A stretch of 64,000 nt of DNA from an uncultured Pseudomonadales bacterium (GCA_964574595.1 CAZNOF010000006.1:21532-85531), one strand, 5' to 3'. Counted from the first letter of the stretch, positions 48,332-63,555 are shown. Notes: generated by a model not told the origin, from the letters alone. Numbers and translations: made by a program.

Positions 48332-48400
48332 CGCGGGATAGTGTACGGTGCACGTGAGGCTCATAATCTCGCAGGTCGGGTTCGACTCCCGATCCCGCAA
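48332..48400 (+). tRNA. tRNA with CAU anticodon (Met / initiator-like; 69 nt, CCA not encoded)
   Basis: Hand-folded. Acceptor CGCGGGA/UCCCGCA with a C1·A72 mismatch and A73 (E. coli tRNA-fMet has CGCGGGG/CCCCGCA+A). U8 A9. 3-bp D stem GUG/CAC with a GG-containing loop. Anticodon loop CUCAUAA. Perfect T arm UCGGG-UUCGACU-CCCGA. Followed by a weak hairpin + U7. The anticodon stem has two G·U pairs and Y11:R24, which is atypical for initiators. Confidence 0.5.
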
Positions 48401-48459
48401 CATAAGAAACAAGAAAATCGCCCCAGAGGCGGTTTTTTTGTACCTCTGCCTAAGATTTT

Positions 48460-51018
48460 TTGTTTTATACTATAATCCAGATTATGCCATTAGAAATTTT
48501 TATTCCTGGTGCTTCTGAGCATCAAGCACCTGAATCGAAACCCCTAGCGAGTGGTCTCGTCATCAATGCTCGAGGCGAAACGCTTGATTCAACACAAAAA
48601 ACCCAATTATTTATTACAAATGAAAAAGGTACAATTAAAGAAGTTGCCCCACTCGGACAAGAAAGACCCACTATGAACGGCGAGTACTCTCCTACCTCTC
48701 ATATTCCACAAGATGAACCAGAAGACATGAGAAGAACACTTGTAGAAACAGAAGCGGTGAAAACAGGACGAGCCTATAAATCAGATACGATCCTCGAAGC
48801 GGTAGCGAACAATGAAATACCCAAACTCTCGCACGGGCTGTACGATTTGGTTTTTGAGTTGGGATCAACAAATATTGACTGGCGAAAAGATGTAGAACCC
48901 ATCTTAACTGCAGCAGGCATCAATACTCTCAATCCAGATATGGGCGCGAACTGGGATCCTAAGCGTGACACGCTAGCTGAAGCATGGGGTTTGGGAAACT
49001 CTGCCGAGCTGGCGATGTATATTGAAAATGCTGCTGACATTAAGGATGGAAGTTTAGGTTCTTTAGTAGAAATCGGTATGTCCGTCTACTCAGCGGTTAT
49101 TAGTGGGCAGCATGTGGATATTCACTTTGACGAACACTTTGAGGAAACCTTAGAAGACCCCGGCGCCATCGCACAATTTGAAGCGTTAAAGACACAACTA
49201 GCAGCAATTCAAAAAAAATACGGTCACTTAGTCTCGGTTGAGTACAATAGTACTCGTCAAAACTATGCTGAGAAAATTCAATTGGCCATGGAGAGACAAC
49301 GGAATCCTGAAACCGCCAACAAGCCAATTACCAAAGAAAAATTGCAAGAATTTGCCGAAAAAAGAAGACAGAGATTGGCAAAAAAGAAACGCAAAGTGGT
49401 TTACGGCGGATCTTCTGCGCCTTTCGATAAATCACTGCAACTCTCCTTTGACACTGAGCAAGACTTAATTCAACAAATTTTTGGTGGCGAAGCAGCTATG
49501 GATGTACTTAACAGAGAGCCACTCAAATCTGCCTGGGATCGTGCCTACGAAGAAGGTATTAGTAAAGATGAGCAGATCAAACGTATGAACTTCTTATTCC
49601 AAATGGAAGCTGGTCCCAAAAGCCAAGCCGACATTTTACTCTGGATCATTCAAGCTAGAGCCGAGTCGATGGCTGCCATAACGGAAACACCGTTCCTGCT
49701 CCTAAATGCTTTAGAAGAAGGGCAACAAGTAGGCGTCCTCTCTGAAGACTTAGATGCTGACTTTTATGTGCAACACCTGTTTGGCAGAAGAGCACCAGAT
49801 CTTGAAAAAACGACTGGACCATTGCCAATTTACGACCAGCTCCGAGATAAACGAGAGACAATTACCTTTAAATCCATCAAAAATGAACCTGAACTCAAAA
49901 AGACTCGGCTCTTCTCACGTGCTGATAATGTCCGTCGCACTCGAGCCATTTCCTCACAGCAGTTACTAGGTATCAATGAAAAGGCCAGAAAAATTGCGGG
50001 TGACGAGGAAATTGAGTTGTTTATCTTTAGTCGAGATTTGACTGATTTTGCACAGAAGTGCCAAATTATTGCCGACAATGAAACCTTTGAGGGTCGTGAA
50101 GTGTTCTACAACAACTTAAGTAAGTTTAACGATAACATGGAGGCCATGGTGGCTGAGCATGCTGGAGATAAAGAACATGCCGTAGAGATTGTTTGGAATG
50201 CGATCAAAGCTGCTGTAGAGCTCAACCCATTTGCGCCATCATTAGAGAAGCACTTGAATGAAGTCAAGGCCACTTGTGCCACTTTGAAAGAATTGGTTGC
50301 GGCTCATCCGGACGCTGATGGCAATCCATACTTAACTCCAGAAGAAATGAAGTTAATGGTTGATTATGTGGCTCCTCTCCACGACATCTTAAAACTCCTC
50401 GGTGCTCCAAATGTCCAAGCTATCCCTGACCATGAAGTCTTTGCTGGATACATCGTAAACACTTACTTTGAGAAACTTGGATTTACTCCACAAGAAGTAG
50501 CATTCATTGCCGGCGTGATTGGCAATCATGAGAACATCTTTAAAGAGAAAGAGCGTGATAAGTACTCTTCATCAGAGAAATCAGTGGACCGAGGAGTTGC
50601 TCTCTTCTTTATCGCAGATGGCTTAACTGGCGTTGTGTCTGAGGAAAATGGGGTCATAAAACTCGATCCAGCTCAACTTGATGAACGTTTCGGCAAGCTC
50701 TATGTCAATCACATGGATCCAGAGACTCGAAAAGTTGCGCTGCCACGACCAGAATGGGGCTTCTCAACCGTCAAAGATTATCTGGCTACGTTTGATACGC
50801 TGGAAGCAAAATACGGCTTCAAATTTGATCCAGGTGCTCGAAAGATGTTGATTGATTCTGCTGTTAAAGCAATTGATACCACGCTCGGGAACAATGGCAA
50901 ACGAAAAGAAGAGGCATCCAACAAAAAACCACTCATGACTGATCCGGAACTGATTAATTTGATGAAAACACGATCGGCACTCAAGAAGATTGGCCGCGAG
51001 CTAGCACCAGCAGCCTAG
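48460..51018 (+). CDS. large multidomain hypothetical protein with C-terminal HD-domain-like motifs (alternative start ATG 48484)
   Basis: 852 aa. C-terminal third contains H...PLHDILKLLG...FFIADG, resembling the H / HD / D signature of HD phosphohydrolases. N-terminal regions unassigned. Confidence 0.4.
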   Translation: MFYTIIQIMPLEIFIPGASEHQAPESKPLASGLVINARGETLDSTQKTQLFITNEKGTIKEVAPLGQERPTMNGEYSPTSHIPQDEPEDMRRTLVETEAVKTGRAYKSDTILEAVANNEIPKLSHGLYDLVFELGSTNIDWRKDVEPILTAAGINTLNPDMGANWDPKRDTLAEAWGLGNSAELAMYIENAADIKDGSLGSLVEIGMSVYSAVISGQHVDIHFDEHFEETLEDPGAIAQFEALKTQLAAIQKKYGHLVSVEYNSTRQNYAEKIQLAMERQRNPETANKPITKEKLQEFAEKRRQRLAKKKRKVVYGGSSAPFDKSLQLSFDTEQDLIQQIFGGEAAMDVLNREPLKSAWDRAYEEGISKDEQIKRMNFLFQMEAGPKSQADILLWIIQARAESMAAITETPFLLLNALEEGQQVGVLSEDLDADFYVQHLFGRRAPDLEKTTGPLPIYDQLRDKRETITFKSIKNEPELKKTRLFSRADNVRRTRAISSQQLLGINEKARKIAGDEEIELFIFSRDLTDFAQKCQIIADNETFEGREVFYNNLSKFNDNMEAMVAEHAGDKEHAVEIVWNAIKAAVELNPFAPSLEKHLNEVKATCATLKELVAAHPDADGNPYLTPEEMKLMVDYVAPLHDILKLLGAPNVQAIPDHEVFAGYIVNTYFEKLGFTPQEVAFIAGVIGNHENIFKEKERDKYSSSEKSVDRGVALFFIADGLTGVVSEENGVIKLDPAQLDERFGKLYVNHMDPETRKVALPRPEWGFSTVKDYLATFDTLEAKYGFKFDPGARKMLIDSAVKAIDTTLGNNGKRKEEASNKKPLMTDPELINLMKTRSALKKIGRELAPAA

Positions 51019-51914
51019 TTTTTACGAAGCTTATAAACGAGTTTTTGATGAACAGGAATAGCTTCAACTGAGAAGCCAAGCTGCTTAAAGCAAGCCATCA
51101 GTTCGGCGTACTGGGCCAAACAATATTCATACCAATTAGTCAATGATTTGGCTTGTTCAAAAACACTTCTGTAGTGAACGACCAGCAGGGTTCCTTCTGG
51201 TTTCATTAATGAAGTGATGTGTCTAGCCAGAAACATCAACTCTGGCGATTTGCCAGACATCAGTTCTTGGGTAGCTGTTTTAAATAGCTCAGCATCTCGA
51301 TATAACTCTTGAATGTGCTGGCCCGACTTTTCCGCCCAAGTATTTAACAAATAATCATCAAGAAAATGATTGGTCGTTACAAGATCGTATTGTGGGTCAT
51401 TTGGCAGAACGAGGAGTTCAGAAACCAGTTTTTTGACAGCGAATTGAGGGTGAAAAAAGCGTAAAACTGTCTCTAATTTCTCCAATGAGGCTAGATCCGT
51501 ATCCAACAACGCAACTTCCCCTGTAAAGTTATGACGAGCCAATGCAATCTCAACTTTGGGAGCCCAGCCAGGCAGCAGATCAATCACGTTCATTTCCGAA
51601 GTCAATTTCACTGATTTCAGTAATTCATACCAGAGGTCTGAAATGTGATGGAAGCCTTCTAAATAACGCATGAACTCAGCGGTTCTTCTGCCTACATCGT
51701 CATGTTGCCTGCCAATGAATTCTGTCTCCGAGTACAGCCCCTTCTCGGCATACTCGACCATAAACTGTAAGTCAAAAGCCACGTTTTCTTGCTCCAAAGG
51801 CGTCAACGTAGAACTCAGTTTTTGCAGGCGGTCTAAGTAAGAAGATATTTGAGAAGAGGTGGATGAGGTGCTCATGAGGAATTGCCGTATAATATCATCT
51901 GGAACACTCGCCAT
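51015..51914 (-). CDS. hypothetical protein with weak Rossmann/SAM-methyltransferase-like motifs
   Basis: VIDLLPGWAP (motif I-like), VALLDTD (motif II-like), DLVTTNHFLDDY (motif IV-like). Start uncertain because the annotated start overlaps the divergent gene. Confidence 0.35.
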   Translation of the reverse strand: MASVPDDIIRQFLMSTSSTSSQISSYLDRLQKLSSTLTPLEQENVAFDLQFMVEYAEKGLYSETEFIGRQHDDVGRRTAEFMRYLEGFHHISDLWYELLKSVKLTSEMNVIDLLPGWAPKVEIALARHNFTGEVALLDTDLASLEKLETVLRFFHPQFAVKKLVSELLVLPNDPQYDLVTTNHFLDDYLLNTWAEKSGQHIQELYRDAELFKTATQELMSGKSPELMFLARHITSLMKPEGTLLVVHYRSVFEQAKSLTNWYEYCLAQYAELMACFKQLGFSVEAIPVHQKLVYKLRKN

Positions 51915-53040
51915 GCAACTTGATCAATCCACCACTTCTGCCGAAGCAATTCAGTTGAGAAAAAAACTGACCAGAATTGCGCGTGGCTTACGACATACAA
52001 CACTGCCTGAAGTTCTTGACTATTCCCTGCCTCAATCCGTCTCATCAGATACGATTCGTTTTAAAGACACCTTCATCTCTCGAAAGCGGATTGTGCTTTT
52101 AACCGGAAGTTGTAGTGTTGCCAGTTGTACGATGTGTCATTTGCCCAATGAAGCACTTTGGAAAGATCGGCCACAGCCCACACAAAAAAACTTGCTGGAT
52201 CAGTTTTCGGCCGCGTTCGCAGAAGACAAGATCAATAATTACGACATGATCACGATTTATAATAACGGCAATTTTTTTTCCGATCGCGAAGTTCCACCTG
52301 AGGTGCGCCTCAAGATTGCTGATCAAATTAATACCGCTGGCTGCAAGTACTTGCTCGTCGAGTCTCTTCCCCAGTTCATCACCTCAACAGCACTTCAAGA
52401 AATGAGTACGGCACTTGGAAATACCAAGCTCGTCCTATCGATTGGTCTCCAATCTGCCAATGACTATGTGCGTGAAGTGGCGGTGAACTCAACTTGTTCA
52501 AAACAACAATTTGAACGAGTGGTCAAGGAAGCCACCGAACTTGGTCACGAGATAATGACCTTCTTAATGCTCAAACCACCTTTTTTAACGGAACAAGAAG
52601 GCATTGATGACATGATTCAAAGCTTAGAGTACCTGACGTCTTTAGGACTCACAGAAACTGCCATTTGCCCAACTCAAGTTTCTGACTTTACGATTGCAGA
52701 TGTCCTTTTCACTGAGAAATCATTTACTCCACCGTGGTTATGGTCGGCGATAGAAGTTTTAAAGATTGCTCAACAAAAAAACCTGACTTTGCCACGCTTT
52801 GCCACATCCGTCTTGAGCTCTTCACATCTTGAGAATTTAAAGTTGGCGTATAATTGTGATCAATGTTCTGATCGATTCATCCATCTTTTAGAAGAATACA
52901 ATAACTCAAGAAATATTGATGCTCTCGTCAATTTTTCATGTTCATGCAAAGAAGAATATGATCGGCAACTTGCCCAAGCAGTCACCTTAGAAAGCTTAGA
53001 ATCGCGCATTACGGCGTTCACTCAAGCCCATTTTGTCTAA
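51859..53040 (+). CDS. radical-SAM-like protein with non-canonical Cx4Cx2C cluster and C-terminal extra Cys motifs (start uncertain; Met at 51916 possible)
   Basis: LLTGSCSVASCTMCHLP (C-x4-C-x2-C). TIM-barrel-like length. C-terminal CDQC...SCSC. Confidence 0.4.
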   Translation: MDEVLMRNCRIISSGTLAMQLDQSTTSAEAIQLRKKLTRIARGLRHTTLPEVLDYSLPQSVSSDTIRFKDTFISRKRIVLLTGSCSVASCTMCHLPNEALWKDRPQPTQKNLLDQFSAAFAEDKINNYDMITIYNNGNFFSDREVPPEVRLKIADQINTAGCKYLLVESLPQFITSTALQEMSTALGNTKLVLSIGLQSANDYVREVAVNSTCSKQQFERVVKEATELGHEIMTFLMLKPPFLTEQEGIDDMIQSLEYLTSLGLTETAICPTQVSDFTIADVLFTEKSFTPPWLWSAIEVLKIAQQKNLTLPRFATSVLSSSHLENLKLAYNCDQCSDRFIHLLEEYNNSRNIDALVNFSCSCKEEYDRQLAQAVTLESLESRITAFTQAHFV

Positions 53041-53043
53041 TAT

Positions 53044-54006
53044 ATGAATATCTCCTCTCCCACTTTTCAAGCCCTTACTAATCCCGTGCTTTTGACAGAA
53101 CTGCAAAACTACCGAAAGAGGCGCGGCTTTGAGGCAGAGAAAGTTGTACAACAAAAACAAGAACTACTGGCAAAATACTGCACGGATTGGCAGATTGACA
53201 CCTTAATTGTGCCAGTTAGCGGCGGAGTTGACTCTGCGGTGGTGGCAGCCTTAACGGCGGTTGTAACACAGAAAAATCAAACGCTCAAAAAAGTGATCCT
53301 GCTTTTTATTCCTCAGTTCAATGAGGGCAGTTCGAACCAAGCCGATGCTCAAAAAAAAGTCGAACTTCTGGCAGACAAACTTCAAGTTGAGCTCATTACC
53401 TTTGATATTTCAAACTTGCACCAAACTGTGATCGAAGAACTCAATAAAAAATCTCTCAGCAGTGGCTGGCTAAAAGGCCAAGTGACGACCTATTTGAGAA
53501 CGCCCGTTTGGTATAGTTTAGCGGCTCAACTAGCCGAGGCAGGCCATCGGGCAATCGTCTCCGGCACTATTAATTTTGATGAAGGCAGCTATCTGGGCTA
53601 CTTCTCTAAAAGCTCTGACGCCATGACTGACATTCAGCTGATTTCCGATTTACATAAGTCGGAAGTCAAAAAAATTGCTGAGTACTTTCGGATTCCTGAA
53701 GAGATTAGAAACGCGATTCCCAACGGGGACATGTATGACAATAGAAATGACGAAGCTGTTTTTGGAACGAGTTATGATTTTGTGGAACTGTATAGTTGGT
53801 TTCTTCAGCTACCTGAAGCGGAGCAAGCACGGAAATTGAAAGGTTGGCCGGCGGCAGCTCAAAAAGAGTTCGAGCGGATGAGAGCAAATCTAGAACGACT
53901 TCATGAATATAATCGGCACAAATATACTGTCGCCCCACAAGGACTGCACTTCACGGTATTTGAGGCAACTATTCCCGGTGGCTGGACATTAGTAAAATAT
54001 GTTTGA
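53044..54006 (+). CDS. nadE: NadE-like PP-loop ATP pyrophosphatase (NH3-dependent NAD+ synthetase family)
   Basis: PP-loop VPVSGGVDSAVVAAL. C-terminal ISDLHKSEVKKIAEYFRIPEEIRNAIPNGDMYDNRNDEAVFGTSYDFVELY matches the NadE L.K.EV..LA..LG.P..I..K.PSA.L..Q.DE...G..Y..LD pattern. Confidence 0.6.
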   Translation: MNISSPTFQALTNPVLLTELQNYRKRRGFEAEKVVQQKQELLAKYCTDWQIDTLIVPVSGGVDSAVVAALTAVVTQKNQTLKKVILLFIPQFNEGSSNQADAQKKVELLADKLQVELITFDISNLHQTVIEELNKKSLSSGWLKGQVTTYLRTPVWYSLAAQLAEAGHRAIVSGTINFDEGSYLGYFSKSSDAMTDIQLISDLHKSEVKKIAEYFRIPEEIRNAIPNGDMYDNRNDEAVFGTSYDFVELYSWFLQLPEAEQARKLKGWPAAAQKEFERMRANLERLHEYNRHKYTVAPQGLHFTVFEATIPGGWTLVKYV

Positions 54007-55732
54007 CCATCGCCTCAATCCGTACTTCCAAAAATGGCTGGGTCTCAATCAGGATGAGCTTGATGCAGCTTTCAGTGCCTTGCCCGATATTGATCAGCTA
54101 AATCCAGAAAACAGATTTTGCTGGAAAGTCTTACGAGACACGCATTACGCCACGGTTTGTGAACAGCTTGACACGCAAGAACTCATTAAAGCAGGTTTTT
54201 TTGATGACACGATTAATTTTCAAGATACGGTCTTCTCACATCAAAAAGTTGCCCAAGTGGGAATTCCAACCCGGAAACTTGATACGTTATTAGGGAAAAG
54301 TTCAAATTCTGCAAAACCAAAAGTCGTTTTGTTAAGTACCGGCGCGTTTGCCCATGCGCACTTTGGTCATATTCATATGATGGAGCAAGCAAAAAAAGCA
54401 GTTGAACAATCTGGGAAAATTGTAGTCGGCGGATTCCTCTCTCCCTCTCACCAAGATTATATTTCTTATAAATTGGGCTCGATCGCACCTCTTTTTTCGA
54501 TTGAGGAAAGATTGGCTGCCTTACGATTATTGACCGATGAATCAGACTGGTTAGACGTGGCACTGACGGAATCCCTTTACCGTAAAACATCCGTCAACTT
54601 CACTGATATCATTGAAAGTTTGCAAATCTATCTTGGAGAACTCTATCCGACGGAATCTATTGAAGTCATCTATGTCTTTGGATCTGATAATGCGAAGTTC
54701 TGTTATGCATTCGCTCATCTTGGTAGCGCCATCTGCGTCCAAAGAGATACTTTTCATGAAGAGTGGCAAACGTATCAGCAGTTATTTAAAACCAACCACC
54801 GAATTTTATTTACCAATGCCATCATCCCGTACTCCACCTATGCATCCTCAAAAAATAGAACCGTCAAATCAGAAACTCCTGCCACGCCAAAGTTAGTGAA
54901 AAAGCATAAAACACTTTTACTTCGTGATGACCGAGACTACCTATTAGAAAAATGGCCGATTGGGAATACAACTCAGTTGAAAACTACCTTGGATTTATTT
55001 CACCAACGCCTAACTCAGCTCTTAGAAGAAGCATTGTCAAAAGACGAAACCTTCAGTTGGCAGGTGATCAAAAATCCCATGAATGAGCAGAAAAAAAAGT
55101 TAGCTGAGCTGATGAGAAATCAGCTTGTGATCAATTTAGATGAATGTACCCAAGGAAGTCACGCTTTGCGTGTGTCACGCTTGTTCTCTTTGTTTGACTC
55201 ACAAACAAAACCACTCAAACTCGTGGCAACTCCTGGCTCTGAATCAATCGAAAAACAGTTAGCGCAAATTCCGGCTGGTAAGTACCAGCTGACGGACGAT
55301 GACATTTCAACTGGTTTTACGACAACACAGGCTCGCAAACTTTTGGAAGCAACTGAGCATCATATTTCTGAAGTGACCAGTCTTTCAACAAACGATGCTT
55401 CGGTGCATGAAGTCTTAGATCTACGGGACTTTCTTGTGGGTGCTCCTGCCAGCGGGTTAGTGATTGAGCTGTCTGACAACAAGTACCGAGTTCCGTACTT
55501 GTGGCCGTATGTCAATATTTCCAGGCGTGGCTCACTACCATTTTTGGCGAGTTTTGAGTTCTCTAAACAGATATGGCAAGCAAATGCGGCGTTTTTTAAA
55601 GCCGTTGCACCTACAATGACACTAAGCGAAATAGATCCATACAGGGCTGAAATCTTTTACTTCTTTGGATTCACCGCACAGACAACAATCGTTGAGCTAT
55701 GTCTGAAACATGTTCAATTACTGAATCTTTAA
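53999..55732 (+). CDS. fusion protein: HxGH nucleotidyltransferase (NadD/NMNAT-like) domain + C-terminal type I phosphoribosyltransferase domain
   Basis: VVLLSTGAFAHAHFGHIHMM resembles the G.F.P.H.GH signature of NMN/NaMN adenylyltransferases (Ala for Pro). C-terminal KYQLTDDDISTGFTTTQA is a PRPP-binding loop of type I PRTases. 577 aa. 8-nt overlap with nadE. Confidence 0.5.
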   Translation: MFDHRLNPYFQKWLGLNQDELDAAFSALPDIDQLNPENRFCWKVLRDTHYATVCEQLDTQELIKAGFFDDTINFQDTVFSHQKVAQVGIPTRKLDTLLGKSSNSAKPKVVLLSTGAFAHAHFGHIHMMEQAKKAVEQSGKIVVGGFLSPSHQDYISYKLGSIAPLFSIEERLAALRLLTDESDWLDVALTESLYRKTSVNFTDIIESLQIYLGELYPTESIEVIYVFGSDNAKFCYAFAHLGSAICVQRDTFHEEWQTYQQLFKTNHRILFTNAIIPYSTYASSKNRTVKSETPATPKLVKKHKTLLLRDDRDYLLEKWPIGNTTQLKTTLDLFHQRLTQLLEEALSKDETFSWQVIKNPMNEQKKKLAELMRNQLVINLDECTQGSHALRVSRLFSLFDSQTKPLKLVATPGSESIEKQLAQIPAGKYQLTDDDISTGFTTTQARKLLEATEHHISEVTSLSTNDASVHEVLDLRDFLVGAPASGLVIELSDNKYRVPYLWPYVNISRRGSLPFLASFEFSKQIWQANAAFFKAVAPTMTLSEIDPYRAEIFYFFGFTAQTTIVELCLKHVQLLNL

Positions 55733-55743
55733 AGCTTCTGCAA

Positions 55744-56841
55744 TTACCCTGAGTGAGTGTACGTTTGTGGAGACTGATTCCACTTATAACTAGAACTGGA
55801 CGGAACACTTGGTGGCTGAGAATTGTATTTAGCCGCTTGAGCTTGAGCTTGTCTGGCTGCTTCTTCAGCTTCTTCTTTAATTCGTTGGCGATTTTTCTCT
55901 TCTCGATACTCTTTAAGCTGGGCGTCCATATCAATTGGCTTTTTCAAAACTTTCACTTTTGTAAACAACTCAATAACTTGACCATCCCTGTGCTCAACTT
56001 CAAACTCAAAGCGTGAGAAATCTCGTCCTGTCTCTGAGTCAATATCTCCTATATTTGCAAAAGAACCTGGGACAACTTGAAACTTTGACTTAGCCCCTGG
56101 GGCTTCTTCAGTCAGTAAGATTGGACGAATGAGGTCGTACTTATCTGGGTCTTTGCACGAGATAATCAGCTCTTTCTCACCATTGGCATTATTGATATAA
56201 AGGATGTCAACTTCATTGCTTGGATCATTAATATCACTCGGATTAAATCGCAAAGTCACGAGCTGGCCGTTACCACCCTTAACTAGACCCTCGATGCGGA
56301 CGATTGGTAACTTCTCGACTTGCTTATCGATGGCTTTCTTGACTTGTTCTCGTTTTGCCATCTCTCTGAATGAATCCATGGCGGAAACAAGCTTGGTATT
56401 TAAACCAATACTCGCTAGAGAAGACTTATCAATCTTGTTATCAATTTCATCAACCCGCAGCTCTAATAAGTCAGCCAAGTTTCCTAAGAATTCATCGCTT
56501 TCATCACCGTAGAACCATTCAAACTTGGTTCCTTGAAGGGCTGCCTTCCCCCCACCATCTCTTACCAGCTTAATAAAGCTTTCGATATTCGCTTTTTCTG
56601 CAGCACTTATTGTTTCCGTGTCAAAAATAAGTTCACCCGTACCAGATTTAAATGCTTTATCTCGTGTCACACCCTGATCATGTTCATCTGGATCAGAGAG
56701 TGGTTTTTCAGAAAAGACGAACTTCTGGTCACCAATAAATTTAGATAGAAAGCTACCCTCTGTAGATTCTTTCTCAGGTGGCAAATCCATTTCAGTTTTA
56801 AATTCTTTTGGATCAAAGCGTCTATTCGGATTTTCTGTCAT
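55744..56841 (-). CDS. hypothetical acidic protein, last gene of the ATP-grasp/AAA/VWA operon
   Basis: 365-aa ORF. C-terminal Q/A-rich tail. No motif. Confidence 0.4.
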   Translation of the reverse strand: MTENPNRRFDPKEFKTEMDLPPEKESTEGSFLSKFIGDQKFVFSEKPLSDPDEHDQGVTRDKAFKSGTGELIFDTETISAAEKANIESFIKLVRDGGGKAALQGTKFEWFYGDESDEFLGNLADLLELRVDEIDNKIDKSSLASIGLNTKLVSAMDSFREMAKREQVKKAIDKQVEKLPIVRIEGLVKGGNGQLVTLRFNPSDINDPSNEVDILYINNANGEKELIISCKDPDKYDLIRPILLTEEAPGAKSKFQVVPGSFANIGDIDSETGRDFSRFEFEVEHRDGQVIELFTKVKVLKKPIDMDAQLKEYREEKNRQRIKEEAEEAARQAQAQAAKYNSQPPSVPSSSSYKWNQSPQTYTHSG

Positions 56842-56869
56842 ACTTTCCTATCTCTTGTAATTTCGTAAT

Positions 56870-58498
56870 TTACCATTCTGGAACAACCTCATTGCCACTT
56901 ACTTTGGCGCTTGCACCTGGTCCCATGTAGTTGTGACCAGCTTGGTTCTTAGGTTTCAGCATATTCCACAGTGGCATACTATCGATGTAGTCGTAGACGA
57001 TTTTGTAATCACTTGGTGTCTTCTCATCACCAAAAACACCAGATAAATAGACTTCTCTCAAGGCTTCTCTTACTACATTTCCCCAGTTAATTTCAGCTGG
57101 TTCTTCGAGCCCACCGTTTGGAGTTTCTTCTGCCGTACGGTTAATACCAGCAATCATTGCATCAACTAAAGCAGAGACATCCCGCTGATCAAAGACATAC
57201 GAGCCACCGTTCTTCTTCGTTCGACCAATTAAACCTTTACTGACCATTTCTGAAAGAGAAACATGGAGCGTAGCGATACTTTTGCAGACAACATTTACTT
57301 TGTCAGCTGGCAAAGATTCAAAGTATGACTTTTGTGGAGTTTCCACGCCTCTTCTTCCCTTAATCAGTTTGCCATTCACACGTACATCTGGATCATCACC
57401 TACCATCTTAAATTTGAGGATATTTTCTACATACTCAGGAGTTACATTTGGTAAAACAACTGTTTCATTGCGACTTTGCCAGGCGTCTGAAAGATACGAA
57501 CGGCCGGAAACAGCTGGTGGGTTCTGAGCCATGACAATAAATGCGTCAGGACTTCTCACCACGGGTGGTCTAAACCCAGATACTGAGAAACTTACTGTAT
57601 TGACTTCTAGCAAAGGCAAAAGCACTTCCAACACACTTGTGTTATCTACAGTATTTGGCTCATCTAAAGCCAAGATTCCACCCCATTCGATAATCTCTAC
57701 AGCGGGAGAATCTTTCCATGTGTATTCAGATTTAATTAAGAGCTCCAAATTAATCTGACTCATCAGGGCTTTAGCAGCATCCAATACTTCTTCATCGTCA
57801 AGAGCTTTACTCTCTAAAAGCTCAATCAAGTTGTCGTAGACAATGATTAAGTCGCGGTCTGCACTTGTAAGTTTATCTTCTTTTCCGTCTGCAATCAGTT
57901 TTTTTCTCCATTCAACTTGTCTGGAGACACCAGCTGATTTCAGCAATCTCATCACTGTTGGCAGGATAATTTCTTTTTGATCAGAAACGCGACTACCAAT
58001 AATATTTGATTCTTTGGTGCCAGCTGAGAAACTTAAGCGATAGTATGGTTGACCAATGATCGCGGAAAACACCCAGGTCGCAAATGTTTTAGAAACAGCT
58101 GGAGGACCTTCCAAAGTCATCGGCTGGCGACGATTGTAACGGACACCAATTTCTCCTAGCACCCACAGTGTTGTTTCATCAAGCATGACCTGTTCTTGGA
58201 TATGCTCCCACTGCGTGATGCGCTCCTGCATTTTTTCATTGGCTGGCATCTCTGGGATACGGACGATCACTGGAGTATCAAACTCAGGGCAATACATACG
58301 GACAATTTGGTGTCGTTCATCATCATTCTTGGCATAAAATCTCAATGCACTACTATCATCACCTAAAACAGAGTGATACTCACTCCAGTTGATTTTTTGA
58401 TACTGCTCACGAGCTGCTTCACGGCTACGTTCACGTTGGAGTTCAATTGCTGTTTTGCCAGCTTCTGGATTCTTGCTAGTTGGATTCTGCTCGTGCAT
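56870..58498 (-). CDS. AAA+ ATPase of the MoxR / AAA_5 (dynein-related) class with degenerate Walker A
   Basis: GPPAVSKT (P-loop with Ser in place of the second Gly). Walker B ILALDEP. Sensor-1-like MAQNP. 542 aa with long N-terminal extension. Confidence 0.55.
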   Translation of the reverse strand: MHEQNPTSKNPEAGKTAIELQRERSREAAREQYQKINWSEYHSVLGDDSSALRFYAKNDDERHQIVRMYCPEFDTPVIVRIPEMPANEKMQERITQWEHIQEQVMLDETTLWVLGEIGVRYNRRQPMTLEGPPAVSKTFATWVFSAIIGQPYYRLSFSAGTKESNIIGSRVSDQKEIILPTVMRLLKSAGVSRQVEWRKKLIADGKEDKLTSADRDLIIVYDNLIELLESKALDDEEVLDAAKALMSQINLELLIKSEYTWKDSPAVEIIEWGGILALDEPNTVDNTSVLEVLLPLLEVNTVSFSVSGFRPPVVRSPDAFIVMAQNPPAVSGRSYLSDAWQSRNETVVLPNVTPEYVENILKFKMVGDDPDVRVNGKLIKGRRGVETPQKSYFESLPADKVNVVCKSIATLHVSLSEMVSKGLIGRTKKNGGSYVFDQRDVSALVDAMIAGINRTAEETPNGGLEEPAEINWGNVVREALREVYLSGVFGDEKTPSDYKIVYDYIDSMPLWNMLKPKNQAGHNYMGPGASAKVSGNEVVPEW

Positions 58499-58506
58499 TT
58501 AGTCCT

Positions 58507-58929
58507 TTAATTCATTCTGCATGTGTAATCAAACACATGTTGTAAATTTGGTGATAAATCAGACACATTTGTGTTATTTAAGAGTACAAAAAGGCGACCT
58601 TTGTTATCACTATGACCTGCCTGGGAAGCTGTTTGTTGCCAACCCATTAAATCGGTGTACATACTTAATAACTGATCTTGATCCTTACAAGTAATCAGGA
58701 CGACCACGCCTACCTTGAAAAAGGTGTTGACGATGTCGAACAGTTTGGCGGCCCCAATTTTCTCAACTTGATCTCCAGAAAGAGTTTGACACATCTGGCC
58801 TTTACTCTTAATGATGTTCACAATTTCCATGCCATTTGTGTCTTTGTCAGTCACAAAAAGGGAGACAAAATGAGAACCTTCTGGGGTTGGGGTAAGACGT
58901 TTAGTGATGAACTCTTCAACGGTATTCAT
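58507..58929 (-). CDS. hypothetical small protein (140 aa)
   Basis: Intact ORF between the AAA_5 and VWA genes. Alpha/beta-like composition. No motif. Confidence 0.4.
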   Translation of the reverse strand: MNTVEEFITKRLTPTPEGSHFVSLFVTDKDTNGMEIVNIIKSKGQMCQTLSGDQVEKIGAAKLFDIVNTFFKVGVVVLITCKDQDQLLSMYTDLMGWQQTASQAGHSDNKGRLFVLLNNTNVSDLSPNLQHVFDYTCRMN

Positions 58930-58962
58930 AGGTAGCTTTCACGGTATTGTACTGCACCTTCT

Positions 58963-61764
58963 TTATTTTTTAAACTCATTTGGGTTACTAATAATGTATT
59001 GAAAAATGATTGGTAATACAATCGTTAACTCTGCTGTATCTGAGAATGAGTTACTTATACCTTCAAATTTCACCTTGCCAACTTTAGCCGTTAGTCCCTC
59101 ACGAGTATAGTAATTGTTCAGCTCTTGAGTGATCTCAGCGCGCAATCCGTCTGGTAACAGAGGAAAGACTTCATTGACAAATTCTGTATTCTGACCGATA
59201 CCAAACCCTAACAGGGCCAAATCTATATTATTATTTGTGGCATCAGACTGCACTTGTTTAATGACCTCTTTGAGCAAATCACTTGGTGCGAGCGGGATAT
59301 TTGGAATGCTATCAGTTGGTTGACCATCTGTTAAGACAATTAAGAAATCTCGCTTCTTACCGCTTCTGGCTGTCTCTTCATTTCTTGTTGCTAATTCTTT
59401 GAACGTGGATAACATGGCACTGGAGGTTGGTGTGCCATTTCTTGGTACCATTAAGAGACCACCAATATTCCTCTTCTGCTCTTCACTCAACTCCTCATCT
59501 GTGTCTTCCGTTTCTGCATAGGATTTAAACACTTTCATAGTCGTGCCATCACTAAACTCCGTAAATCCCTCCACCGCGAACTCAATTCCCAACGCGGTAA
59601 ATACTGTAGATAAAATGGTTACCATCTTGAACGCTTCGCGAATCTTATCGTCCATAGAACCAGATAAGTCGACTAAAATAGTAAATCGATAATTTTTCTT
59701 ATTTGGCTTCTCCTCATATGCTAAAACATCTCGGCCACCCTCACCTCGTTTGCGATCGATATCTCGGTCAATATCTAACTCACCTTCATCTTCAGAATAG
59801 CGAGTTCTCGGATGATTCTTGGGTCTGAAAATTGGCGAAAACTCATCAACTAGTGTTTCAATTGCTAACTTAATCTCTGGCAATCTGCTTACTGTATCAA
59901 ATACCTCCATGGTATCTTCAACTTCCGACATAAATTGATCATTCGCTCTCTGAATTTGATCCAAAATATCTTGGGGAACTGGAGGTAATTCTCTTGGCGA
60001 GGGGGATGGCTTTTTTTGCTCAGGAATTGGCTTTCTCGTGGCGGATTGTTGATTCTCTTCTCCTGAATCACTGGCCTCTTCACTTTCTTCACCTTCTTTT
60101 CCATTTTCACTCTCACTTGATTCAGATTCACCACTCTCTTGTCCTGGCTGGCCGGCCTCACCGGACTCACCTTCACCCGCTTCGCCTTCACCGGACTCAC
60201 CCTCCCCACTTTCACCCTCTGAACTCTCACCGCTGTCATCACCTGATTCAGATTTCTCACCTTTTTGCTGCTGTTTCTGCTTCTCTGAAACCTTACTCGG
60301 TCGGCTGACGCCTTCTTTATCAGATTTGCCTTCTAATTTTTCATTGACTTCATCTTCAACTTCGCCAAGTTCTTGCTGAGCCTTATCCTTCATTCCTTGC
60401 TTGGTATCTTCTTTGACTTTATCGAACTGTTCTTTAATTTTTTCTTTGGACTCTTCGCTGACTTTATCCCATGGAATTTCAGGTTTCCCGCCTTGAGAAC
60501 TACTTTCTCCACTTTGGGATTGTTCGCCAGATTGCCCACTTGCTGAACCTGATTGAGAACTTGGTTGAGAAGAGCTTGAAGAGCTTTGTTGACCTGATTC
60601 TTGTCCTGCCTGACTGCCTTGACCTGAATCAGAACCCTCCTGAGCTTCCTGGCTTTCACCAGACCCGCCAGATTCTTCACCTGATTCTCCTGAGCCGGCA
60701 CCAGATTGTTGACCCTGTTGACCAGGTTGACCCTGCTGGCCAGGTTGGCTCTGTTGCTGTCCTTGCTGCTGTTGTTCTTCTTCTTTACGTTGTTCGTCGA
60801 TGAGTTCTGCCAACTCTTTTTGGACTTCTGGAGGCAAAGAGTCAAAATCGATGATGACGAATTGACCACCATCTTTCCCTTCAAATTGCCCACCCTCGAT
60901 CAGTTGATCAATAAACTCTTTCAAGGATTGATCATCAACAGATTTTTCAACTAATTCTTTGTAAATATTCCAAATGTCACGGTAAACAATCGCGCGAGCC
61001 TTTGCTTGCTCTTGAATTTGCTCTTCCTTGGCATACATGTCTGGAACGGCATCCCAAAAAGCTTCCATCAGCGGGGCAATTTTTTGAAATGCTGCCTCTA
61101 CATCTGGATCGATACTTTTAATGAGTGCGGAAAACTCATCCATTTTAGTTTGGTCAATTTCGGTGTATGGATCAACTCCATAGATCGGGGTTTTTTGGTC
61201 TACGTTGAGGGTTCCAGCCACTTGCCTGCCGTAAAAATACTGACGCATCACGCCACCTAAGATCATGTGTTTTGGAATGTAGCCAAGTTTTTTCTCAACT
61301 TGTTGATTGATGGTGATATCTAAGCCGCCACCTTTTGCGACATCGACATCCAGATGAGATTTAATCAGCTCCTTGCCTCGGCGGTGAACTCGGTCAGCGG
61401 CATTTTCAATTCCACAGTCTTCGGCAAAGTTAAAACCTATGGCAAATCCTAATTGTGACCACTCGTCTTTGGTAAAGTGTTTCACACGACTCATCCAAAC
61501 ATGAAGTGCTTCATGCAAAGCAACACCCACACAATACTCACGAGATTTCCCGAGTAAGTCATTCTCATCCATCACAATATAATTTTCTTGAAAGTTCCAG
61601 TACCAACCTTGACCTTTTTTCCAAATAACAGGAATGTCTTTGCCCGGATTCGCAAATTTCACGATTTCAGCACACTGACGTCGCGTTTCTTCTCGATAAA
61701 CGACTTCGGATCTGCCAGTGTCTGCCTCGTGTGAAATCATAGATAAATCAGCATTATACTTCAA
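58963..61764 (-). CDS. metallopeptidase-like (HExxH) N-terminal domain + long acidic/Q/G/S-rich disordered linker + C-terminal von Willebrand factor A domain (DUF2201-like architecture)
   Basis: VGVALHEALHVWMS (HExxH). About 250 aa of QQG / SGE / EGES repeats. C-terminal MIDAS motif ILVDLSGSMDD (DxSxS). 933 aa. Confidence 0.6.
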   Translation of the reverse strand: MKYNADLSMISHEADTGRSEVVYREETRRQCAEIVKFANPGKDIPVIWKKGQGWYWNFQENYIVMDENDLLGKSREYCVGVALHEALHVWMSRVKHFTKDEWSQLGFAIGFNFAEDCGIENAADRVHRRGKELIKSHLDVDVAKGGGLDITINQQVEKKLGYIPKHMILGGVMRQYFYGRQVAGTLNVDQKTPIYGVDPYTEIDQTKMDEFSALIKSIDPDVEAAFQKIAPLMEAFWDAVPDMYAKEEQIQEQAKARAIVYRDIWNIYKELVEKSVDDQSLKEFIDQLIEGGQFEGKDGGQFVIIDFDSLPPEVQKELAELIDEQRKEEEQQQQGQQQSQPGQQGQPGQQGQQSGAGSGESGEESGGSGESQEAQEGSDSGQGSQAGQESGQQSSSSSSQPSSQSGSASGQSGEQSQSGESSSQGGKPEIPWDKVSEESKEKIKEQFDKVKEDTKQGMKDKAQQELGEVEDEVNEKLEGKSDKEGVSRPSKVSEKQKQQQKGEKSESGDDSGESSEGESGEGESGEGEAGEGESGEAGQPGQESGESESSESENGKEGEESEEASDSGEENQQSATRKPIPEQKKPSPSPRELPPVPQDILDQIQRANDQFMSEVEDTMEVFDTVSRLPEIKLAIETLVDEFSPIFRPKNHPRTRYSEDEGELDIDRDIDRKRGEGGRDVLAYEEKPNKKNYRFTILVDLSGSMDDKIREAFKMVTILSTVFTALGIEFAVEGFTEFSDGTTMKVFKSYAETEDTDEELSEEQKRNIGGLLMVPRNGTPTSSAMLSTFKELATRNEETARSGKKRDFLIVLTDGQPTDSIPNIPLAPSDLLKEVIKQVQSDATNNNIDLALLGFGIGQNTEFVNEVFPLLPDGLRAEITQELNNYYTREGLTAKVGKVKFEGISNSFSDTAELTIVLPIIFQYIISNPNEFKK

Positions 61765-62557
61765 ATAATCGCTCGAAAGAGTTGGTAATTATGTCTAAAA
61801 CTGGCTTGTGGCTTCTGCCTTTTTGGGCAAGATATTCATAATGTACCTCTGCCAAATGGCGAACTTCTTCGATCACGTATTCGTGGCACGTTTCATCCTT
61901 CGCAAACATCGTAAATGACACGTACTTCAATCCTGGAAATGTCAGCAGTACTTTTTTAGCAATTTTTTTGAGTTGACGAGAGGCTTGTCCAGTCACATCC
62001 ATATACGCAAAAGAATTTGTTTGAAAATCAACTTTTTTTCCTGCCTCGACAAAACTGATCACATTCTCGTGGGTCCGAACTTTTTCGAGCACTTGAATGA
62101 AGCCTGTGTCACTCAAGAAGACTTGATACTCGTTGCCCTGAAGTTGCTTTTCTATCAGCACGTTTTGTTCGACTTTGCTCAAGGTCTCAAATGCTTCAAT
62201 TAACTGTTTTAAGGAATAAATAGTCGTTAGCTCATCACCTTTGGCATTCGCATTTTCTAATTTCAGTGAAATTGGGAAGAGTATTTTTTGAGCGAAAGCC
62301 ACAGCTCTAGATAAATCTTGGGATGAGAAAACTGCCGACTGGGGTATACACAGTTTAGCGTCCTGCAAGACTTTTTGCGTAAAGTATCGATTGCCCAAGA
62401 TCAGTCCTATGTTATAGGGTACCATCGGCAAATACTCGCCAATCACAAAGCGCTGTTTGCCATTTTTCGTGAAGACTTGAATATCAGTGCCAACAACTTC
62501 TTCTACTTGGAAATGATTTTTGAGTGCGTAATCAAGAATTTGTTGATGCATTTTCAT
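61754..62557 (-). CDS. ATP-grasp-fold protein, paralogue of the upstream ligase, possibly degenerate
   Basis: Aligns by eye with the 333-aa ATP-grasp protein (FPISLKLENANAKG vs YPVVVKPVNDGQG; LIEKQLQGNEYQVFL vs LLEKHIFGEEYRVLI). Lacks the terminal E-x-N...PG Mg-binding motif. Confidence 0.45.
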   Translation of the reverse strand: MKMHQQILDYALKNHFQVEEVVGTDIQVFTKNGKQRFVIGEYLPMVPYNIGLILGNRYFTQKVLQDAKLCIPQSAVFSSQDLSRAVAFAQKILFPISLKLENANAKGDELTTIYSLKQLIEAFETLSKVEQNVLIEKQLQGNEYQVFLSDTGFIQVLEKVRTHENVISFVEAGKKVDFQTNSFAYMDVTGQASRQLKKIAKKVLLTFPGLKYVSFTMFAKDETCHEYVIEEVRHLAEVHYEYLAQKGRSHKPVLDIITNSFERLFEV

Positions 62558-63555
62558 ACGTTAAAACTCACTTCCACCAGCGGTTTGGCAACGTCATGAG
62601 ACTGACCTTTTCCTGGGACAGTATGCAGTGATAAACCTGGGTAGGCATTGAGCTCGCAGATTATCCATTCCTGTTTTGTAAGTGGTTTACTAATATCCTG
62701 ACAGATCAAGTCTAAACCCACATATGCCAATCCGCCCACCGCATCTAAAACGCGACTTGCCAACTTTTTGACACTTGGATGAGCTCGATTTGTGATATCT
62801 TCACAACCGCCACCTTTTGAGACATTGGTATTTGGCCGAAGCTGCACAACAGCACCTTGTGCTGGAACAGATTGAAGATTTTGCTGATTTTTCGCTAAGA
62901 AAGTACTCACCACTTCATCCATTTTAATTTCACACAAGCAAGTGATTCTGGGATTCATTCGTCGAAAGTTTTCTGCTTCAATCAACTGTTTAATTGAGTG
63001 CTTGCCATCACCAAGGACTCGTGCTGGAGTTCGGTGGACTGCCGCAAAATAGCCAGTCTTGGTAATCAAGACTCGATACTCTTCACCAAAGATATGCTTT
63101 TCAAGTAAGAAGACTGAGGAACTATGATTTTCCTTCGCGTAACGATCAATGCAGGTACTCAGTTCCGTTGGTGATTCAATAAGTGAATACACGAAGTTTC
63201 CTTGGCCATCATTAACTGGCTTAACCACTACGGGGTAAGCTACTTCATCGGCAAACTTGAGTGCCTCCCTTTTTTGATAAATACTAAACACTTTGCCTGG
63301 TGCCACATTGATCTTGTTCATTTCCAGGACTTTTTTGGTATAGAACTTATCGCTAGCAATCCAGCCGGAGGTGAAAGAAGAACAGGAAGAACTGATATCA
63401 AACAGCAGTTCTTTATGACCATTAAGAGACGCGACAGTAATTGGCGTGTCATCGATAAACCGTAGCCGAGCTCCATTTTTTTCGGCAGCAACTAAAAAAA
63501 GATTGGTATTGTAGTGAATGTCTTTTCTTTTCATCAAGTTTAAATCTGGGCGCAA
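62554..63555 (-). CDS. ATP-grasp ligase (RimK / cyanophycin-synthetase-like peptide ligase family)
   Basis: YPVVVKPVNDGQGNFV (ATP-binding lysine loop), EKHIFGEEYRVLI, C-terminal WIICELNAYPGL (E-x-N Mg site). 333 aa. Confidence 0.6.
   Translation of the reverse strand: MRPDLNLMKRKDIHYNTNLFLVAAEKNGARLRFIDDTPITVASLNGHKELLFDISSSCSSFTSGWIASDKFYTKKVLEMNKINVAPGKVFSIYQKREALKFADEVAYPVVVKPVNDGQGNFVYSLIESPTELSTCIDRYAKENHSSSVFLLEKHIFGEEYRVLITKTGYFAAVHRTPARVLGDGKHSIKQLIEAENFRRMNPRITCLCEIKMDEVVSTFLAKNQQNLQSVPAQGAVVQLRPNTNVSKGGGCEDITNRAHPSVKKLASRVLDAVGGLAYVGLDLICQDISKPLTKQEWIICELNAYPGLSLHTVPGKGQSHDVAKPLVEVSFNV

Follow-up and report, generated by a model that had tools for sequence, protein, structure and literature searches.

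The biosynthesis of NAD is regarded as among the best-mapped areas of metabolism. In the Preiss–Handler pathway (PncB–NadD–NadE), a free base is joined to phosphoribosyl pyrophosphate (PRPP), the mononucleotide is adenylylated and a PP-loop enzyme carries out the amidation. Here we describe a gene set whose products are predicted to perform these same three formal chemistries. It lies in a 64,000-nucleotide stretch of DNA listed as coming from an uncultured Pseudomonadales bacterium (GCA_964574595.1, CAZNOF010000006.1:21532-85531; the whole stretch is referred to as the window and positions are counted from its first letter), and its core comprises three genes encoding a radical S-adenosylmethionine (SAM) enzyme of the RaSEA type, a NadE-like ligase and a fusion of an NMN/NaMN-adenylyltransferase (NMNAT) domain with a type-I phosphoribosyltransferase (PRT)-like domain. 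NrtR, nadD and nadE genes are found beside the module in other genomes. Unlike the Preiss–Handler pathway, however, the module has a type-I-like PRT in place of a type II enzyme, joined to an NMNAT that resembles eukaryotic ones, its NadE belongs to a divergent subfamily, a near-obligate oxidase (74 of 75 loci) supplies a fourth activity, and the whole coexists with NadD and NadE.

A second point of comparison is the ArcS–RaSEA system of Euryarchaeota, in which ArcS ligates lysine to preQ0 and RaSEA, working in complex with ArcS, turns the adduct into the free amidine, the nitrogen being given by lysine and not by NH4+, asparagine or glutamine (PMC11298593). The first protein of the trio belongs with RaSEA in the TIGR01210 family, shares with it a non-canonical cysteine triad and a C-terminal CxxC...CxC arrangement, and likewise is a radical-SAM enzyme paired with a ligase. 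There are differences as well: the module belongs to bacteria, a NadE-like PP-loop ligase stands in the place of ArcS, a pyridine nucleotide and not tRNA is the expected substrate, neither ArcTGT nor preQ0 genes were seen near the module in the annotated loci, and the RaSEA-like protein scores 11 bits below the family cutoff and is interchangeable with 2-oxoglutarate (2OG)-dependent oxygenases.

Compact gene sets that rebuild NAD+ are also known from phages. NARP1 consists of Adps and Namat and NARP2 of Nampt and NMNAT/Nudix (10.1101/2024.02.11.579819), whilst NARP3 combines PnuC with a NadR-like enzyme (PMC13464706); Adps has the PRPP-synthetase fold, which falls within the type I PRT fold group (10.1101/2024.02.11.579819; PMC13464706; PMC13586617). 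NARP2, like the module, couples a PRT to an NMNAT, and the module's fusion gene is found on giant viral contigs and, in one case, beside a TIR effector. No NARP system, however, includes a NadE-like ligase, an oxidase or a fusion of type-I PRT and NMNAT, and the carriers of the module are mostly cellular chromosomes. NARP3 was considered as the identity of the module and set aside, its components being different. NadM–Nudix and NadR provide further precedents for an NMNAT domain fused to a second NAD-related domain, encoded by genes that are often under NrtR control. Full-text searches of the literature (for TIGR01210, NARP4, and NadE together with 2OG and phage), the coverage of which was incomplete, found no description of the module, and named homologues of the fusion are all annotated 'hypothetical protein', with partners named 'NAD(+) synthase' and '2OG-Fe(II) oxygenase'. 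What is new here is the class of PRT, the fusion and the obligate oxidative partner; the type of pathway (NAD-family nucleotide biosynthesis) and all component superfamilies are known.

We consider it probable that the three genes specify an assembly line for a dinucleotide of the NAD family whose amidoligase needs an oxidative partner. More tentatively, we propose that the trio is the core of a widespread, uncharacterised NAD-metabolism module making a nicotinamide-type dinucleotide, most likely NAD+, by the four steps set out below. The core features are as follows:

51859..53040, + strand: TIGR01210/RaSEA-type radical-SAM enzyme, putative oxidative partner of the NadE-like enzyme (protein 1; from profile match, Cys motif and orthologue context)
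53044..54006, + strand: divergent NadE-like PP-loop amidoligase, a predicted ATP pyrophosphatase (protein 2; from PF02540, TIGR00552 and conserved motifs)
53999..55732, + strand: fusion of a family-specific N-terminal extension, an NMN/NaMN-adenylyltransferase domain and a type-I-PRT-like domain (protein 3; from AlphaFold model, homologues and profiles)
54299..54868, + strand: NMNAT-fold nucleotidyltransferase domain, approximately residues 101-290 of the fusion
54890..55729, + strand: divergent type-I phosphoribosyltransferase-like domain, residues 298-577 of the fusion

An earlier reading of the window, made from the sequence alone (the sequence-only reading), had drawn attention to three co-directional, abutting or overlapping genes here, and these were located exactly where it had placed them. 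The open reading frames (ORFs) of 393, 320 and 577 aa run in one direction, with a gap of 3 nt between the first and second and an overlap of 8 nt between the second and third, and the four motifs that had been quoted all lie at the expected places: GSCSVASCTMCHLP at residues 83-96 of protein 1 (nt 52105-52146), SGGVDS at residues 59-64 of protein 2 (nt 53218-53235), and GAFAHAHFGH and QLTDDDISTGFTT at residues 115-124 (nt 54341-54370) and 430-442 (nt 55286-55324), respectively, of protein 3. Because each protein has many homologues (E 1e-40 to 1e-100) and gene order is kept across phyla, we judge from sequence comparison that these are real genes and not chance ORFs. The true start of protein 1 is probably the ATG at 51913, since the deposited version (P0036) has 375 aa; this would abolish the overlap with the divergent gene at 51015-51914. 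The tryptophanyl-tRNA synthetase (TrpRS) encoded in the window (41369-42379) is 73-77% identical to proteins named Collierbacteria, Pacebacteria, Dojkabacteria and 'Patescibacteria group', and on this sequence evidence we assign the window to a genome of the Patescibacteria (candidate phyla radiation, CPR). The cluster is surrounded by ordinary cellular genes, namely NIF3 and those for a XerC/D-type recombinase, a GT2 glycosyltransferase and tRNA-Met.

The case for a single pathway comes from comparing loci that carry the fusion gene (numbered below with the prefix L). ORFs of at least 100 aa were called mechanically, oxidases were sought with BLAST and clustering up to about 7-10 kb from the module, and the loci compared are not phylogenetically independent. 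A gene for the NadE-like enzyme adjoins the fusion gene in 104 of 118 loci, and in 11 loci all the domains are found in a single polyprotein; the trio is therefore taken to work as one pathway. The oxidase is of the window's radical-SAM type in only 12 of these loci. A 2OG-Fe(II) oxygenase (PF13640/PhyH) is found in 58, whilst 32 have a small radical-SAM enzyme (291 aa, canonical CxxxCxxC, PF04055 35.8 bits) that is unrelated to protein 1 and was found by family-blind clustering of neighbouring proteins. The physical arrangements are close:

NadE-2OG fusion, with the NMNAT-PRT fusion gene separate: 30 loci
single NadE-2OG-NMNAT-PRT polyprotein (1,076-1,591 aa): 11 loci
2OG oxygenase as a separate gene: 13 loci
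stop of the small radical-SAM gene overlapping the start of the NadE-like gene by 30 nt: 29 of 32 loci

The oxidase is thus fused to the NadE-like enzyme in 41 loci. Of the 81 loci flanked on either side by 3 kb or more, 74 have both a NadE-like gene and an oxidase (39 of the 2OG type, 26 small radical SAM and nine of the TIGR01210 type), six have neither, one has the NadE-like gene alone and none has the oxidase alone (Fisher p = 2e-8 for co-occurrence, in loci that are not phylogenetically independent). From these counts, amidoligase and oxidase behave as one functional unit that is either added to the NMNAT-PRT fusion or missing from it. The sole locus with a NadE-like gene and fusion gene but no oxidase within 10 kb is L053. 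That three non-homologous oxidases, one O2-dependent and two O2-independent, fill the same slot points to an indispensable and chemically simple radical or oxidative step, initiated by abstraction of a hydrogen atom.

The second line of evidence is the company that the module keeps. NrtR, an ADP-ribose-responsive regulator of NAD genes (PMC2330246), is represented by family members (NUDIX plus NrtR_WHD, 87-97 bits) adjoining the module in seven loci, including those of Shapiro-, Collier- and Saccharibacteria, and in Leptospira interrogans NrtR stands at the head of an operon NrtR-NadE-like-2OG-fusion. In a Clostridia metagenome-assembled genome (MAG; L024), canonical NadD (TIGR00482 173 bits) and NadE (TIGR00552 211 bits) adjoin the module, as do NadD (96.6 bits, just below the 112.45 cutoff) and NadE (PRK02628 639 bits) in a Saccharibacteria MAG (L071), whilst two Obscuribacterales loci have a tandem double NadD of 433-437 aa (L056 6796-8109 and L080 8664-9965) directly beside the NadE-2OG and fusion genes. 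With NrtR, canonical nadD and canonical nadE adjoining it in several lineages, the module is embedded in NAD metabolism; it does not replace NadD and NadE, whose canonical forms are encoded alongside it, but constitutes a parallel route or a branch. Bacteria commonly run NAD routes side by side with paralogous enzymes, for example NadD together with NadM or NadV. The cluster in the window has no NrtR gene of its own, NrtR adjacency being seen only in related loci, and a search for an NrtR operator in intergenic regions of L021, L024, L071, L084 and L086 gave isolated palindromes but no shared motif. Between the canonical nadE and the NrtR-like gene of L024 lies a gene (16035-17105) for a PTS_EIIC_2-family membrane protein (355 bits) that may be a transporter for a pyridine precursor.

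The fusion itself is distributed widely. In a scan of species-representative genomes it was found in the CPR (Curtiss-, Collier-, Shapiro- and Saccharibacteria, Peregrinibacteria), in Melainabacteria (Obscuribacter, Gastranaerophilales) and in many MAGs of gut Clostridia and Bacilli; Myxococcota, Bdellovibrionota, Armatimonadota, Acidimicrobiia (Actinomycetota) and others also have it, as does Leptospira. Cultured carriers are Variovorax, Streptomyces sp. NBC_00158 and Leptospira interrogans. The viral loci number 27, many of them on contigs of 170-480 kb, and a tblastn search of 50,697 deposited phage genomes gave no match. Two loci that appeared to be phage-borne on account of lysozyme, DCD and ThyA neighbours (L004 and L005) proved to be chromosomes of Candidatus Obscuribacter.

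Protein 3 gave ~35 full-length homologues in a first search, and a profile of its C-terminal domain retrieves 1,198 representatives (50%-identity clusters) at E<1e-3 and 599 at E<1e-30. Its AlphaFold model (pLDDT 87.9, pTM 0.87) has a nucleotidyltransferase fold with (H/T)xGH and SxxxxR motifs, so that the sequence-only reading was right to see an HxGH domain of the NaMN/NMN adenylyltransferase kind, although the protein reaches only 29.2 bits on the NadD equivalog TIGR00482, under the cutoff of 112.45. The base-pocket region of the NMNAT domain, with N231, F234 and F238 invariant in the family, is unlike that of eukaryotic NMNATs. In the C-terminal domain the PRPP loop YQLTDDDISTGFT (residues 429-441) has D434, D435 and G439 invariant and T441 in at least 90% of members, and a conserved S393-R394-x-F396 upstream of the loop offers a candidate arginine for the PPi loop. 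The sequence profile of this domain aligns to adenine PRTases (APRT) at the PRPP loop (12 of 13 matches, E ~0.01), and no Pfam model matches the domain. The type I PRT that had been proposed here can therefore be upheld as regards the loop, the assignment of the domain holding only at superfamily level; the accompanying remark that the fusion is no standard NAD-pathway enzyme agrees with the missing Pfam model and with the uniformly 'hypothetical' homologues. The only significant viral structural match to the PRT-like domain is an uncharacterised 212-aa protein of Acinetobacter phage vB_AbaM_ME3, a cultured jumbo phage (BFVD A0A172Q0R7; Foldseek E 6.5e-8, TM 0.69 normalised to the target).

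Protein 2 has both the SGGVDS PP-loop and the NadE-type C-terminal signature ascribed to it and is a NadE-family protein by TIGR00552 (97.3 bits, over the cutoff of 63.65; PF02540 99.7 bits). It falls far under the cutoffs of the full-length equivalogs (PRK13980 100.1 against 255, PRK00768 71.9 against 250) and for this reason is classed, by sequence, as a divergent subfamily; the canonical NadE of L024 scores 211 bits on TIGR00552. Its nearest solved relatives are NH3-dependent NAD synthetases (3fiu, E 2.2e-15), and no glutaminase domain is present in protein 2. Invariant in the orthologue alignment (A2) are SGGVDS, GT(T/I)NxDEGxYxGYFxKxxDxxxD and a C-terminal NxHKY, and the residues that bind NaAD in Bacillus subtilis NadE structures are presumably kept as well. 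A PHROGs scan gave a NAD-synthetase match for protein 2 and otherwise only weak ATPase matches. Chemistry of the LarE type (nickel-pincer cofactor) was considered and set aside: protein 2 scores 29 bits on LarE against 97 on NadE, and no LarB/LarC-like genes were noticed among annotated neighbours.

Protein 1 aligns over nearly the full length of TIGR01210, 'archaeosine biosynthesis radical SAM protein RaSEA' (residues 75-371 to model positions 15-303 of 313; 201.3 bits, E 2.2e-59), which bears out the suspicion that it falls in this subfamily. Its score is 11 bits under the curated cutoff of 212.15, and PF04055 gives 18.1 bits against a cutoff of 29.5, so that by sequence it is best described as a close TIGR01210 relative and not an equivalog. 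To our knowledge, RaSEA is the only characterised member of the family. The radical-SAM triad (C85-x4-C90-x2-C93) does have the Cx4Cx2C spacing in place of the canonical Cx3Cx2C, as had been reported, but this is no peculiarity of the protein: 97 of 120 homologues share it, distant archaeal-type relatives having Cx7Cx2C or Cx9Cx2C, and the spacing is a family trait. The C-terminal pairs, Cys 333/336 and 361/363, are likewise present, and this CxxC...CxC arrangement is conserved throughout the family alignments. Orthologues with 43-44% identity adjoin the NadE-like and fusion genes in L006 and L009. A sequence search of the PDB found no usable solved relative for protein 1 or for the 2OG partner. 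A more distant TIGR01210-type enzyme is encoded on a Nocardia vaccinii contig (L011, 10001-11110) in an apparent sugar-nucleotide/nucleoside natural-product cluster, flanked by genes for a SIS-PfkB-cytidylyltransferase, an epimerase, a P450, SHMT, GT9 and a carbamoyltransferase; bacterial RaSEA-like enzymes are thus also put to uses unrelated to the module.

How might the three proteins act together? We infer the substrates, order of steps, nitrogen donor and product as follows. The C-terminal PRT-like domain of protein 3 would couple PRPP to a free base of the pyridine type that bears a carboxylate, nicotinate being the likeliest, and the NMNAT domain would adenylylate the mononucleotide with ATP to give a dinucleotide. 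Protein 2 would then adenylate the carboxylate of the base on the way to the carboxamide. The nitrogen, however, would come not from ammonia but from an organic amine (an amino acid) ligated by the NadE-like enzyme, after which the oxidase would strip away the carbon skeleton of the donor by abstracting a hydrogen atom beside the nitrogen, leaving the primary amide. With a 2OG oxygenase the N-C bond could be cut by hydroxylation and collapse of the hemiaminal; with a radical-SAM enzyme, abstraction would be followed by oxidation. This ligate-then-trim role for the oxidase, modelled on ArcS and RaSEA, is possible but somewhat doubtful. It fits the coupling and fusion of ligase and oxidase, the interchangeability of the oxidases and the amino-acid-handling genes upstream: a gene of the Asp-racemase family lies directly upstream in 10-11 loci (TIGR00035 146 bits), 17 of the 26 loci with the small radical-SAM enzyme have a gene for a lysA-like PLP decarboxylase there, and Bacilli have a GNAT domain attached to the fusion protein.

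Several considerations weigh against this scheme. The base and the chemistry that we propose are read from homology, a predicted structure and gene context. The nicotinate and nicotinamide PRTases known so far are type II enzymes, and the PRT-like domain, which has no Pfam match, is far from every solved PRT (structural Z no higher than 7) and so divergent that activity and specificity are not readable from its sequence. In the NMNAT domain, the window's protein has T190 (residues 190-191, nt 54566-54571) at the position of the Trp in a DPWE motif that over 90% of family members share; its remaining catalytic motifs are intact. L024 and L071 encode a canonical NadE, dependent on NH3 or glutamine, beside the module, which raises the question why a second, costlier amidation route to the same product should exist. 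One and the same C-N cleavage would have to be carried out by three unrelated oxidases, and the analogy with RaSEA is not guaranteed, given that distant TIGR01210 relatives occur in unrelated contexts such as the Nocardia cluster. Finally, in six viral loci the fusion gene stands alone, and none of its invariant pocket residues has been lost. Either the fusion works without the ligase-oxidase unit, being sufficient by itself with an amide base such as nicotinamide (a route of the NadV plus NadM type), or its partners lie elsewhere on these 170-480-kb contigs; the invariant pocket residues of lone and trio fusion proteins are identical, so that this comparison does not discriminate.

One alternative is that nicotinate is converted to NaMN, NaAD and, with ammonia, NAD+ by plain salvage of the Preiss–Handler type, the radical-SAM gene being an unrelated neighbour. 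The three required activities are indeed all predicted in proteins 2 and 3, and L053 has both genes without an oxidase. Yet of 75 loci with the NadE-like gene 74 also have an oxidase, the two are fused in 41 loci, all six loci that lack the NadE-like gene lack an oxidase too, and chance proximity cannot explain one slot held by three non-homologous oxidases; we therefore regard this alternative as very unlikely. The sequence-only reading had offered streamlined NAD salvage as one of two possibilities, and its link to NAD stands, through the NrtR, nadD and nadE neighbours, but it was incomplete in leaving out the near-obligate oxidase. Its other possibility, modification of nucleic-acid bases of the queuosine, archaeosine or 7-deazaguanine type, has in its favour that protein 1 is in the RaSEA family, that protein 2 has sub-threshold matches to QueC, MnmA and TilS-type PP-loop models, and that a tRNA-Met gene lies 3.5 kb upstream. 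But protein 2 scores 99.7 bits on NadE against 20.6 on QueC, an NMNAT-PRT fusion is without a role in such pathways, a 2OG oxygenase takes the place of the radical-SAM enzyme in most loci, and the genes that recur nearby are NAD genes. Neither the loci inspected with Pfam annotation nor those recurrent neighbour clusters that were annotated (some gave no Pfam match or had no annotation) showed TGT/ArcTGT, ArcS, QueC/D/E, FolE or DpdA, and the cluster in the window contains no TGT- or ArcS-like gene either. On gene context we reject this possibility as exceedingly improbable, and RaSEA chemistry remains useful as a mechanistic analogy only.

Two further alternatives concern the product and the role of the module. 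In the main rival to our proposal, the product would be a distinct NAD analogue (a cofactor, signal or antimetabolite), built on a carboxylated heterocycle other than nicotinate or modified in base or ribose by the oxidase, with ATP-grasp, GNAT, methyltransferase-like and PLP enzymes tailoring it. That canonical NadD and NadE are encoded alongside the module, in a Saccharibacteria genome too, speaks against plain redundancy, and the distance of the PRT-like domain from all solved PRTs, the unusual NMNAT base pocket (N231, F234, F238) and the accessories reminiscent of a biosynthetic cluster (ATP-grasp in 30 loci, methyltransferase-like in 28, GNAT, PLP decarboxylase and a weak SelO/YdiU-like protein) would all suit such a product. 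The nearest models of the small radical-SAM enzyme are moreover MoaA and viperin, both of which act on nucleotide riboses. Adjacency to NrtR and retention in tiny CPR genomes among housekeeping genes (L002, L053) better fit core NAD supply, however, the NadE-like enzyme presumably keeps the NaAD-binding residues, the accessory genes are missing from about two thirds of loci, and enzymes of the 2OG, RaSEA and small radical-SAM types would seldom yield the same tailored product unless by simple hydrogen abstraction next to a heteroatom. A different dinucleotide is thus conceivable, though rather doubtful. The last alternative concerns role rather than reaction and is compatible with the chemistry proposed here: in mobile elements and giant phages the module may serve mainly for counter-defence or self-protection, rebuilding NAD+ after cleavage by NADases of the TIR or SIR2 type, with NrtR switching the operon on in response to ADP-ribose. 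Phage pathways of NAD+ reconstitution are known (bioRxiv 10.1101/2024.02.11.579819; PMC13464706), 27 loci are viral (many on 170-480-kb contigs), the Leptospira operon lies beside a CAP12/Pycsar-type TIR protein, putAbiC, an HNH endonuclease and an integrase, and the Variovorax copy is next to Mom, PLD and IS605-family genes. Against this, the window and many other loci are ordinary chromosome of free-living or episymbiotic bacteria, among aminoacyl-tRNA synthetase and ribosomal genes, the deposited phage genomes searched gave no match, and no defence genes were noticed in the other loci inspected (without a PADLOC screen). That counter-defence is the main role in these elements is unlikely. 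The Leptospira, Variovorax and giant-virus contexts suggest a second role in conflicts over NAD+, whilst the CPR copies among housekeeping genes are consistent with core cofactor supply. A composite of these ideas, in which a divergent NadE ligates an amino acid to a nicotinate nucleotide fed to it by the type-I-like PRT-NMNAT, a radical-SAM (anaerobic) or 2OG (aerobic) enzyme cuts the donor, and the whole forms, in mobile elements and giant phages, an NrtR-controlled fourth NAD+ reconstitution system directed against NADase-based immunity, is conceivable, though rather doubtful; it would give a route to the amide of NAD that needs neither free ammonia nor glutamine.

If the proposal of an NAD-making module is correct, hundreds of lineages would use a type-I-like PRT for a pyridine base, and an amidoligase dependent on a radical or O2-dependent partner would represent a new enzyme logic in the NAD pathway. 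The three oxidases would be a textbook case of aerobic/anaerobic non-homologous replacement, and RaSEA-type chemistry would be extended from archaeal tRNA to small-molecule metabolism. The module could explain NAD supply in many CPR bacteria, Melainabacteria, gut Firmicutes and predatory bacteria, and may reveal further NAD+-restoring counter-defence in giant phages and mobile islands; were the product an NAD analogue instead, it would be a new nucleotide cofactor or signal. The cultured carriers (Variovorax, Streptomyces sp. NBC_00158 and Leptospira interrogans) make the question directly testable.

In the window the trio is part of a larger whole. The sequence-only reading took 51859-55732 as the unit; the trio is sound, but BLAST and positional comparison with L006, L009/L068 and L049 extend the conserved unit to 51015-63555 (~12.5 kb, 10 genes), with the following accessory genes:

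51015..51914, - strand: Rossmann/methyltransferase-like accessory gene (weak Methyltransf_23, 18.7 bits, below cutoff; orthologues in L002, L006, L009)
55744..56841, - strand: accessory gene F, product with a C-terminus ending ...SG (positional orthologues in L006 and L009, BLAST orthologue in L049)
56870..58498, - strand: AAA+ ATPase, AAA_5, MoxR/CobS-like (PF07728 38.2 bits; orthologues in L006, L009, L049, L068)
58507..58929, - strand: small protein D, 140 aa (ORF of 140-152 aa in the same AAA/VWA interval in L006, L009, L049; no family match)
58963..61764, - strand: VWA-domain protein with a long acidic Gly/Ser/Gln-rich linker (PF00092 30.6 bits, residues 696-861)
61754..62557, - strand: ATP-grasp ligase 2, Ddl-like, weak paralogue of ATP-grasp 1 (Dala_Dala_lig_C 27.5 bits; cyanophycin synthetase model 39.1 bits)
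62554..63555, - strand: ATP-grasp ligase 1, like the G-domain of cyanophycin synthetase (TIGR02068 228.4 bits, E 1.5e-67, model positions 204-471)

The ATP-grasp genes (cluster c2, 30 loci) and methyltransferase-like genes (cluster c3, 28 loci) recur with all three oxidase types, whilst the AAA/VWA pair is confined to seven loci, mostly CPR, and about two thirds of loci lack the accessory genes. One possibility is that the accessory genes make or carry the nitrogen donor. In L002, L006 and L009, orthologues of ATP-grasp 1 are 41-48% identical and ATP-grasp 2 also has orthologues. ATP-grasp 1 recalls cyanophycin synthetase in its 228-bit match to the G-domain but, unlike that enzyme, is accompanied by no cyanophycin M-domain, and ATP-grasp genes are present in 30 loci only. 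The AAA_5 ATPase, which has a weak match to PHROG 249 ('porphyrin biosynthesis', interpreted as CobS-like), and the VWA protein, 26-28% identical over ~920 aa to its orthologues in L006 and L009, resemble CobS/CobT and MoxR-VWA pairs, the VWA protein having a long acidic linker; unlike CobS/CobT, the cluster is without a CobN/BchH-like large subunit. This linker, ~270 aa of low-complexity sequence (Glu, Ser, Gly, Gln) before the VWA domain, recalls architectures of the CobT/midasin type.

Further genes recur in other lineages. In Bacilli a GNAT domain is joined to the fusion protein. In L029 (13270-15123) and 16 other Firmicutes loci a ~617-aa protein (c5) with a faint YdiU/SelO-like match (E ~1e-3) follows the ATP-grasp gene, and a small protein of ~110 aa (c9) often comes next. 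Two unannotated families without Pfam or NCBIfam match, c8 (~210 aa) and c17 (350-635 aa), recur beside the fusion gene; both occur on giant viral contigs, c8 in certain bacterial loci too (set: L094, L095, L096, L099, L101, L103; L057, L059, L065, L100).

At the edges of the cluster, two ORFs were considered as members and rejected. The truncated ORF at 63597-64000 (+ strand), which starts MHIYLVRHTK... and by eye resembles a histidine phosphatase (PGM-like), is dissimilar to the genes next to ATP-grasp 1 in L006 and L068, and the cluster boundary is therefore placed there. Upstream, an 852-aa ORF (48460-51018, + strand) had been described as an HD-motif protein, but Pfam gives no HD match and the ORF adjoins the module in no other locus compared; its sole match is a sub-threshold one to nucleoside 2-deoxyribosyltransferase-like proteins (22.7 bits against a cutoff of 30). 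Between this ORF and the GT2 gene lies the tRNA-Met (CAT) at 48332-48401 (+ strand), called by both ARAGORN and Rfam. Protein F, which has no Pfam or PHROG match, ends in a tail of the form YNPP...SS...Y...SG that is also found in L006 (8070-8999) and L009 (13916-14854), and the Ser-Gly tail may serve for modification or recognition; an unrelated 503-aa neighbour of the module in L053 (12734-14245) likewise ends ...SQSG.

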